Part shown: positions 12,352 through 12,586 of the stretch, piece by piece
Numbering within the stretch: position 1 is the first letter of the stretch
Layout of the letters: each line of letters opens with the position of its first letter
DNA from: Candidatus Dormiibacterota bacterium
GTDB taxonomy: Bacteria > Eisenbacteria > RBG-16-71-46 > SZUA-252
Length of the DNA: 64,000 nt
Reading direction: 5' to 3'
Assembly (NCBI GenBank): GCA_035635575.1
Contig: DASQAV010000002.1
Location: 1,539 to 65,538 of the forward strand
Position numbers and translations under genes: made by a program
Notes under the pieces: generated by a model
The model's input: only the letters and a program-made list of their open reading frames with translations
What the model was told of the DNA's origin: nothing
Databases searched by the model: none

Positions 12352-12423
12352 TTACCAGCCAGCCTTGCCGCCCGGAGGCGGGATAATCGTTGCCGCAGCG
12401 ATGAGCAGAAGAATCAGAGCCAT
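12352..12423 (-). CDS. micro-ORF 1, 23 aa (MALILLLIAAATIIPPPGGKAGW)
   Basis: ATG preceded by AAGGGGGG with a 9-nt spacer. Hydrophobic N-terminus, conserved C-terminus IPPPGGKAGW, TAA stop. Paralogue of micro-ORF 2. Not in the supplied ORF track. Confidence 0.45.
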   Translation of the reverse strand: MALILLLIAAATIIPPPGGKAGW

Positions 12424-12508
12424 TTAGTTTCACCCCCCTTCTTGTGCTTTTTTGAGTCCGACTTGCTTTCAGTGCTCGTATTGCCGGTGCTTCGGGTGCT
12501 GCCGTTGC

Positions 12509-12586
12509 TTACCAGCCAGCCTTGCCCGGAGGCGGGATCGTTCCGACGAACGCGATGATCACGAGAATCGGGAGAAGAGCTGCCAT
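12509..12586 (-). CDS. micro-ORF 2, 25 aa (MAALLPILVIIAFVGTIPPPGKAGW)
   Basis: ATG preceded by GAGGTG with a 4-nt spacer. Hydrophobic N-terminus and the same C-terminal IPPPGKAGW. The 3' 30 nt are nearly identical to micro-ORF 1 apart from a 3-nt indel. Confidence 0.45.
   Translation of the reverse strand: MAALLPILVIIAFVGTIPPPGKAGW

Follow-up and report, generated by a model that had tools for sequence, protein, structure and literature searches.

Between a sensor kinase gene and lon, on the minus strand of a 64,000-nucleotide stretch of contig DASQAV010000002.1 (GenBank assembly GCA_035635575.1, deposited as a Candidatus Dormiibacterota bacterium), lie two consecutive open reading frames (ORFs) of 25 and 23 codons, here called micro-ORFs A and B; the whole stretch analysed is referred to as the window. 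Comparison among related loci showed that both micro-ORFs are real genes under purifying selection at the protein level, with strong ribosome-binding sites, and that strong selection acts on the free C-terminal GKAGW of their products. Judged from the database searches described below, the peptides are a new small-protein family restricted to a single clade of uncultured bacteria from soil, mostly labelled Candidatus Eisenbacteria. We strongly infer that the pair is a self-contained bicistronic unit of ~430 nt, running from a sigma-54-type promoter to a terminator before lon. As for function, we tentatively favor, with less than even confidence, a composite explanation in which kinase- and sigma-54-induced membrane micro-proteins would dock through the GKAGW tail, probably on the kinase.

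A sequence-only reading of this DNA had proposed a tandem pair of paralogous micro-ORFs, each with a strong Shine-Dalgarno (SD) sequence and a TAA stop, and reading of the minus strand located both where it had placed them (A and B are its micro-ORFs 2 and 1, respectively):

12509..12596, minus strand: micro-ORF A with its SD sequence; ATG at 12586, 25 codons, TAA at 12511..12509, product MAALLPILVIIAFVGTIPPPGKAGW.
12596..12591, minus strand: SD sequence of micro-ORF A, GAGGTG, five bases ahead of the ATG.
12352..12440, minus strand: micro-ORF B with its SD sequence; ATG at 12423, 23 codons, TAA at 12354..12352, product MALILLLIAAATIIPPPGGKAGW.
12440..12430, minus strand: SD sequence of micro-ORF B, AAGGGGGGTGA (AAGGAGGTGA in relatives).

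The 3′ block shared by the two micro-ORFs was non-random, as a degenerate pattern for PPGKAGW followed by a stop had two sites in the 64 kb against 0.00 expected from 100 shuffles. Evidence for coding came additionally from a second, independent sample of 80 metagenome loci, which was anchored not on the peptides but on p225, the cupredoxin gene upstream of the kinase gene, and in which the ORF filter permitted G[KR][AGS]GW at the tail. Exactly two ORFs ending in GKAGW were present in 25/25 metagenomic loci with the whole interval covered and a p225 identity of at least 56%, and the seven genomic loci spanning the kinase–lon interval likewise held two micro-ORFs each; kinase identity among loci carrying the pair was as low as ~55%. 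The loci yielded 54 distinct peptides of 19–26 residues, all 54 of which ended in GKAGW-stop despite the permissive filter. Sixty copies of the tail block (12352..12369 and 12509..12526, minus strand, plus 58 from relatives) fell into 15 nucleotide haplotypes without a single nonsynonymous change, although all four Ala codons and three Gly codons occurred; the stop was TAA in 50 copies, TAG in 10, and TGA never. Frame, start, stop, and SD sequence were kept, with synonymous-only variation of the tail, in more than 30 loci, as expected of the genuine paralogous coding genes that had been proposed.

Substitutions in ORF B favored the third codon position (27/17/41 by position), with a ratio of nonsynonymous to synonymous differences (pN/pS) of 0.46 and a pS of 0.55, similar to that of lon (0.46). 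The corresponding pN/pS of ORF A was 0.61, and its pS (0.32) was lower than that of lon. Insertions and deletions within the micro-ORFs were all multiples of three, whereas flanks and spacers carried out-of-frame ones; the distance between the ORFs varied out of frame between 68 and 86 nt, and the inter-ORF spacers were unconserved. The SD motifs of both micro-ORFs were conserved among loci. Codon usage in the tail was unusual, in that GCT accounted for 48% compared with 2% genome-wide, GGG and GCG were almost absent, and G was shunned at third positions. Stop counts in the other frames did not discriminate, the DNA being too short and GC-rich. The plus-strand antisense ORF at 12452..12646, described in the sequence-only reading as Cys-rich by chance, was rejected as a gene: it was not conserved among loci, and the longest antisense ORFs differed wholly from locus to locus.

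To delimit the distribution of the family, we searched at several levels. The synteny check by tblastn found the gene order p409, p225, kinase, micro-ORFs, lon, and two convergent genes fixed in all real matches, with both kinase and lon always present. When the Genome Taxonomy Database (GTDB), represented by a single genome for each species of prokaryote, was scanned for the pattern P-P-x-G-K-A-G-W-stop, in which the prolines were required, 98 matches were returned, of which ~88 were chance occurrences in unrelated frames and ~10 were real; all real matches lay in the kinase–lon locus of metagenome-assembled genomes (MAGs) labelled Candidatus Eisenbacteria, plus one labelled Binatia. A word-indexed protein search with the two peptides concatenated gave seven proteins, all of them peptide variants and several with spurious N-terminal extensions, and a profile run exhaustively against 1.84 billion representative proteins gave seven matches, all of the GKAGW family. 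Proteins of the window were matched exactly in soil metagenomes, on several near-identical contigs. The absence of a recognizable family, noted in the sequence-only reading, was borne out by Pfam, NCBIfam, and PADLOC, none of which matched either peptide.

The NCBI labels of MAGs holding the locus or relatives of its neighboring genes (P0013, P0023, P0027, and L102) disagreed, naming Eisenbacteria, Binatia, Dormibacteraeota, Limnocylindrales, and Methylomirabilota, and the taxon name should accordingly be used cautiously. One MAG (L041, L095) had the junction of micro-ORFs and lon on two contigs, of which one begins within a micro-ORF; strain mixing or a break of the assembly at the repeat may be the cause.

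The alignment of the family begins with Met1, a variable second position (A, E, T, Y, or S), Ala (74%), and Leu (91%), followed by six to eight hydrophobic residues. This core is succeeded by a small residue (A in 42 peptides, S in 11, and T in one), F/A/L/Y, a second small residue (A/G/S), and T/G/D/S, and then by a linker of 0–9 residues before GKAGW, which is Pro-rich, with Gly, Asp, or Ser in divergent members. Of the C-terminal motif IPPPG(G)KAGW described earlier, the GKAGW part thus proved invariant, and the IPPPG(G) part did not hold, prolines being missing from divergent relatives. The hydrophobic nature of the N-terminal half was likewise upheld, the best-scoring segment on the Hessa scale being negative (favorable) in 54/54 peptides; the description as transmembrane-like needs qualifying, as the uncharged hydrophobic run comprises 11–17 residues (median 14), short for a full transmembrane helix. 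The hydrophobic moment was low, indicating a non-amphipathic helix. None of the 54 peptides contains Cys, and hence there is no lipobox, nor do any (0/54) carry Lys or Arg within the first 12 residues, and the N-terminal half is therefore not a Sec-type signal peptide. Polyproline stalling dependent on EF-P was rejected as the key feature, many members, such as MAALILIAIFVSLADGSGGKAGW and MYALLIAAATLITFGKAGW, having no prolines. Two sequence types (…PILVIIAF.G… and …LF.VAAATT…) take either position depending on lineage, and some loci hold two near-identical copies, a picture that suggests gene conversion and favors dosage or redundancy over an obligate A/B pair.

A C-terminal core with invariant Lys and Trp, preceded by a variable N-terminal half, would also suit precursors of ribosomally synthesized and post-translationally modified peptides (RiPPs), in which the Lys and Trp of KAGW would be cross-linked as in streptide or darobactin; Lys–Trp cross-links recur in RiPPs. 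This explanation is very improbable. No radical-SAM or other maturase, protease, or exporter was found within ~10 kb, where p409 is porin-like and p225 a cupredoxin of the electron-transfer type, the purely hydrophobic leader is atypical, and the peptides had no match to the KxxxW family of NCBIfam. The spacing also differs, being K-x2-W here, K-x3-W in streptide, and W-x-K in darobactin.

Next, we focused on the DNA between the kinase gene and micro-ORF A, which contains the following elements:

12663..12648, minus strand: sigma-54-type promoter TGGCACGGCGACTGCT, in which canonical spacing separates the −24 GG from the −12 GC.
12826..12869, minus strand: candidate upstream activator site, GAGACAAC..GGACA..GTCAAGT.A..GCGACA, of putative function.
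12691..12769, minus strand: conserved non-coding blocks, candidate sites for an activator or bending protein, of putative function.
12769..12763, minus strand: GTTGTCA, reverse complement of part of the 12826..12869 block.
12733..12724 and 12708..12691, minus strand: GCATTTCGCA and TGTAAGACAAACACCTAC, respectively, conserved non-coding blocks.

The sigma-54 element lies inside an invariant block, TTGCAAATGGCACGGCGRCTGCTCTTAC, and shows one departure (C for T) from the consensus TGGCAC-N5-TTGCW; the predicted transcription start is at ~12637. TGGCAC-N5-YTGCW had this single match on both strands of the 64 kb, with 0.09 expected. The core GGCAC-N6-TGC was present in 26/26 metagenomic loci reaching ORF A and in 10/10 loci collected earlier, and its distance to the ATG of ORF A varied out of frame from 62 to 73 nt. 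The promoter block thus stands in differing frames relative to ORF A across loci and is therefore a DNA signal rather than coding sequence. The 12826..12869 block, ~165–205 bp upstream of the −24 element, overlaps the 3′ end of the kinase gene (its stop and the 11 codons before it), and every locus preserved the nucleotides of the block despite a kinase C-terminal tail of differing length and sequence.

Gene callers either miss the micro-ORFs or call a 51-residue extension of ORF A starting at the ATG of ATGGCAC. Public gene calls of 50–80 residues at this locus (12509..12664, minus strand; P0001, P0005, P0007, P0009, P0011, and P0012) are artefacts, several of which begin at an ATG within the −24 element, reading ATGGCACG as MARRLLL...; P0002 is an out-of-frame read-through of ORF A into ORF B.

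Two structures follow ORF B:

12274..12310, minus strand: conserved hairpin with a 6–7 bp stem and outer CCGG/CCGG pairing.
12214..12261, minus strand: intrinsic terminator, AGATCGA-GGGCCATCAG-loop-CTGGTGGCCT-TCGATTTT, with a 17-bp composite stem and a U-rich tail.

The 9-nt loop of the hairpin, AGGGCGAAC (12298..12290), was identical in 21/21 sequences compared, and the hairpin begins 12 to 45 nt after the ORF-B stop among loci. The terminator ends ~110 nt before the lon ATG and was found in all loci, with a weaker U-tract in the most divergent. Covariation in the two structures was weak: most changes were of the wobble type, with a single compensatory pair. Two copies of the 9-mer GGGCGAACT exist, one in the invariant loop of the hairpin (12290..12298, minus strand) and one at the start of the inverted repeat in the lon leader (12189..12197, minus strand); the most divergent loci do not preserve the latter.

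The invariant loop and the highly conserved terminator suggest an RNA-level role for the 3′ part of the transcript, and sigma-54-driven small RNAs (sRNAs) beside kinase genes exist, as exemplified by GlmY (PMC3045617). That the transcript is mainly a regulatory RNA with incidental or secondary ORFs, for which the low pS of ORF A relative to lon would also speak, is nevertheless barely credible, since the protein-level signatures are decisive for coding; the 3′ end may nonetheless serve a dual purpose. Membership in a known RNA family and action as a structured sRNA were discarded as well: Rfam gave no relevant match at permissive and gathering thresholds, and the predicted ~430-nt transcript folded no better than its shuffles (z-score +0.37).

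The terminator between the micro-ORFs and lon raises the possibility of cis-acting leader peptides, in which nascent GKAGW would stall the ribosome at the stop, as in TnaC, and thereby affect ORF B or read-through into lon. Invariance of the last five residues and the adjoining stop, with Lys never replaced by Arg, is the conservation pattern of arrest peptides; KAG-W recalls the RAG-P of SecM (PMC10987492); and the tail combines rare codons with stops that are all RF1-readable (TAA/TAG). An N-terminal signal or transmembrane segment together with a conserved C-terminus, as in monitoring substrates, is found here too. Two of the four published properties of such substrates are nonetheless missing, the spacer measuring 0–9 residues instead of >30 and the downstream gene not being of the sec/yidC kind (PMC10987492); that gene is lon, behind a terminator, and the yidC of the window (39700..41355) lies ~27 kb from the micro-ORFs. 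The varying distance from the ORF-B stop to the hairpin, the lack of any alternative anti-terminator pairing when the sequence was read by eye, and a conserved candidate promoter of lon's own likewise speak against leader peptides, which would leave the uniformly hydrophobic N-terminal half and the two copies unaccounted for. We consider this explanation improbable.

The genes upstream of the unit are organized as an operon with 4-nt start/stop overlaps:

16658..12836, minus strand: upstream operon of p409, p225, and the sensor kinase gene.
16658..15429, minus strand: p409, porin-like outer-membrane barrel.
15429..14752, minus strand: p225, periplasmic cupredoxin with a signal peptide.
14755..12836, minus strand: sensor kinase with HAMP, HisKA, and HATPase_c domains and a weak dCache_3 match.

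Pfam supported the neighbors named in the sequence-only reading, namely the HAMP/HisKA/HATPase_c kinase and LonA (12104..9567, minus strand). A response regulator, reported there as lacking beside the kinase, was not found near it, and neither a response regulator nor a sigma-54 activator is encoded in the whole 64-kb window. The profile of p225 matched plastocyanin and amicyanin, and the four residues that ligate type-1 copper there (His, Cys, His, and Met) were aligned and invariant, the first His in an HN motif and the others in Cys-x2-His-x2-Met; its C-terminal part had a weak carboxypeptidase-regulatory-like match. p409, which ends in ...AAQLAVTF, had no sequence match in Pfam or PDB, and its predicted structure was a 16-strand porin-type barrel (pLDDT 83) with Foldseek E-values of ~1e-12 to OmpT, OmpF, and OmpK36. 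It is uncommon for a kinase operon to open with a porin gene. Porin, cupredoxin, and kinase presumably constitute an envelope-spanning sensor module whose partner activator is encoded elsewhere, and the co-transcription of a cupredoxin with the kinase suggests a copper or redox input.

Based on these data, the favored composite can be set out as follows. The pair would be transcribed from the conserved sigma-54 promoter, independently of lon, with transcription ending at the intrinsic terminator. Expression would be off unless an activator of the NtrC type, an enhancer-binding protein, is phosphorylated, which would make the pair an all-or-none inducible unit, and this activator would be the missing partner of the adjacent orphan kinase. 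With its porin-like barrel and blue-copper-type periplasmic protein, the kinase may be an envelope, redox, or copper sensor. The peptides would become embedded in the inner membrane with their Lys-bearing tail facing the cytoplasm, where GKAGW-COOH would dock on a conserved membrane partner, most plausibly the kinase, and exert feedback in the manner of MgrB on PhoQ. As the sequence types trade places from lineage to lineage, the two copies would provide dosage or redundancy and not form a fixed heterodimer. Among the parts of this explanation, the first two layers, real genes with selection on the tail and transcription from sigma-54 promoter to terminator, are very probable; the kinase-feedback step is possible but doubtful. 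Overall, the data lean towards a kinase-linked membrane micro-protein over a classical type I toxin–antitoxin system or a lon leader.

Several observations weigh against the favored composite. A hydrophobic run whose median length is 14 residues falls short of the usual membrane-spanning helix, and a linker of 0–9 residues sits oddly with docking at a set distance from the bilayer. The tail Lys was never swapped for Arg in any of the 54 peptides, which hints at chemistry or a very specific recognition beyond docking. A query with the central domain of E. coli NtrC found no sigma-54 activator gene in the window or in ~100 related loci, leaving adjacency as the link between kinase and promoter. 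Kinase and lon are never apart in peptide-bearing loci, so that synteny cannot tell which neighbor matters. Moreover, remote porin–cupredoxin–kinase modules (p225 identity of 39–55%) have another gene order and are without lon, the sigma-54 motif, and small hydrophobic ORFs; the peptides are thus not an obligatory part of the module.

Helices too short for the bilayer would be expected to disturb it, and the peptides may instead be stress-induced and membrane-perturbing, lowering the membrane potential or altering fluidity and thereby slowing metabolism, with sigma-54 control in place of an antitoxin. In size, composition, and the aromatic residue at the C-terminus, they are similar to the Ibs and YohP classes; each of the tandem paralogues has a strong SD sequence; and the basal activity of sigma-54 promoters is very low. 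The small hydrophobic ORF is a property shared with type I toxin–antitoxin systems; a patchy, variable distribution is not, as locus and copy number (two) are fixed everywhere. Neither a conserved antisense promoter nor an RNA element was found over the ORFs, whose spacers are unconserved, and no promoter-like site was found opposite the micro-ORFs with a consensus that may not be that of this phylum. The invariant GKAGW further points to specific recognition rather than a bulk effect on the membrane. We regard a membrane-perturbing role as unlikely.

The invariant position directly upstream of lon raises the question of whether the peptides act on Lon. The relevant features are as follows:

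12104..9567, minus strand: lon, encoding LonA, with its start at MSKRP.
12200..12105, minus strand: lon leader, highly conserved, with a long inverted repeat, GGGGGCGAACTGGCC...GGCCTTCGTCCCC.
TGGCCA at 12188..12183, N16, and TGT-GATACC at 12169..12161, minus strand: candidate lon promoter with an extended −10, made up of invariant leader positions within the long inverted repeat and assigned by consensus resemblance only.

In such a scheme, cytoplasmic GKAGW-COOH would be read by LonA as a degron, an allosteric activator or competitor, or a membrane tether. Lon recognizes hydrophobic and aromatic degrons, and the free C-terminal Trp before the stop is kept, leaky TGA stops never being used. 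The strong terminator and the probable separate promoter of lon uncouple expression, however, and adjacency weighs little, since the whole region is syntenic, including the two convergent genes past lon. LonA is also soluble, whereas the small membrane proteins known to partner AAA+ proteases target FtsH, which is a membrane protease. A Lon-directed role therefore appears quite unlikely, and lon is probably a neighbor rather than part of the micro-ORF unit. The lon leader may itself be an operator or RNA thermometer for lon.

A variable linker before an invariant tail would fit a pharmacophore, and the small residues after the hydrophobic core (A/S, A/G/S, and T/G/D/S) are arranged as at a processing site. 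The peptides could accordingly be precursors of an exported signal, from which a GKAGW fragment would be released, re-enter via the porin, and be sensed by the dCache kinase in an autoinduction loop. In its fuller form, the cupredoxin/dCache kinase complex would sense the porin-admitted C-terminal fragment in the periplasm and act through a distant NtrC-type activator on the pair's own sigma-54 promoter. Precursors of the SHP/ComS type are tiny and hydrophobic with a conserved C-terminal active part, and here the kinase gene lies directly upstream and is co-transcribed with the porin gene. The lack of Lys and Arg in the first 12 residues, incompatible with a Sec-type signal peptide, speaks against export, as does the nature of the neighbors (porin, cupredoxin, kinase, and Lon), among which there is no exporter, C39 peptidase, or processing enzyme. 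We know of no diderm precedent for such peptide signaling. Both forms of this explanation are rather improbable.

Beyond these genes, the window represents core chromosome, and genes of the origin region lie ~25 kb from the micro-ORF locus. The origin region (29687..46216) comprises gyrA, gyrB, recF, dnaN, and dnaA on the minus strand and rnpA, yidC, mnmE, mnmG, and rsmG on the plus strand, with the likely oriC in the gap at ~38.6–39.0 kb. Neighbors of the locus also include a methyltransferase and M16 peptidases; no maturase, dedicated peptidase, or exporter was found among its neighboring genes. Divergent from the kinase operon, an envelope and peptide-processing run on the plus strand (18167..26044) encodes two M16 peptidases, a beta-helix protein, an S11 D-Ala-D-Ala carboxypeptidase, and an M23 peptidase. 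The run also includes a PDZ-domain protein (22349..23254, plus strand), a domain type that could, in principle, recognize a Trp at a C-terminus. A minus-strand ORF of 1276 codons (4352..8254) is mostly spurious, its real part being the C-terminal aspartate-semialdehyde dehydrogenase domains; the overlapping plus-strand ORF at 5528..8254, with a Big_5 domain, shows the codon bias of a real gene. The defence-system models of PADLOC had no match.

Genes of 19–26 codons escape standard annotation, and the present pair is surrounded by what appears to be a complete, delimited unit of enhancer sites, sigma-54 promoter, two SD sequences, hairpin, and terminator. To our knowledge, the host phylum has no cultured member. 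The invariant free GKAGW amid fast-evolving sequence provides a mutable handle for finding the partner. If this were the kinase, the pair would represent a second, independent invention of MgrB-type feedback and the first such feedback tied to sigma-54 and a porin–cupredoxin sensor. Signals, Lon effectors, or termination-stalling sensors would be still more unusual, and autoinduction, if true, would be the first kinase-sensed ribosomal peptide pheromone system of its kind outside Gram-positives.

Finally, we compared the pair with known systems. The literal GGKAGW occurs in the C-terminal tail ...AAANLTTGGKAGWK of enterocin HF, a class IIa bacteriocin (PMC5041338), which was the sole occurrence of GKAGW found in the literature. 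The two share an Ala-rich helix, a Gly hinge, and a Trp tail; only five or six residues match, however, the host here is a diderm soil bacterium, and the peptides lack a YGNGV box, disulfide, leader, and immunity or transport genes. We treat the match as coincidence or convergence. SHP/ComS systems differ in that the neighbor here is a membrane kinase rather than an Rgg/ComR-type receptor and the N-terminus is not positively charged. SecM, MifM, ApdA, and TnaC resemble the peptides in an N-terminal hydrophobic segment, an invariant C-terminal motif, and a position upstream of a protein-homeostasis gene (PMC10987492, PMC10951233). With a spacer of 0–9 residues instead of >30, however, the hydrophobic segment here cannot leave the ribosome, and a terminator and a probable separate promoter precede lon. 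YohP and Ibs are likewise very hydrophobic, comprise 19–27 residues, end in some cases in an aromatic residue, and are linked to stress (for YohP, PMC12719787), and the Ibs/Sib loci also contain tandem paralogous copies; the present pair differs in its fixed locus, two copies, invariant pentapeptide tail, and sigma-54-type promoter, with no antisense partner detected.

The feedback of MgrB on PhoQ (PMC2789325) provides a precedent for the favored composite. MgrB and SafA share with the peptides a tiny hydrophobic product of one helix (predicted for the peptides), presumably induced by a two-component system, and a short conserved extramembrane part that would confer specificity (PMC2789325). 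MgrB is longer (47 residues compared with 19–26) and has functional Cys residues without counterpart here; there is no sequence similarity, and searches of the peptides against Pfam and NCBIfam gave no match to the MgrB family at E-values up to 10. Furthermore, the peptide genes lie beside the kinase gene, in two copies and driven by sigma-54. A precedent for this arrangement is the glmY–qseE(glrK)–qseG–qseF locus, in which a sigma-54-dependent small gene with upstream activator sites adjoins the gene for a sensor kinase with a periplasmic accessory protein (PMC3045617, PMC6075780, PMC8745638). There, the small gene encodes an sRNA, lies upstream of the kinase gene, and shares its locus with the activator gene, whereas here its counterpart encodes a pair of peptides and lies downstream of the kinase gene, in a locus without an activator gene.

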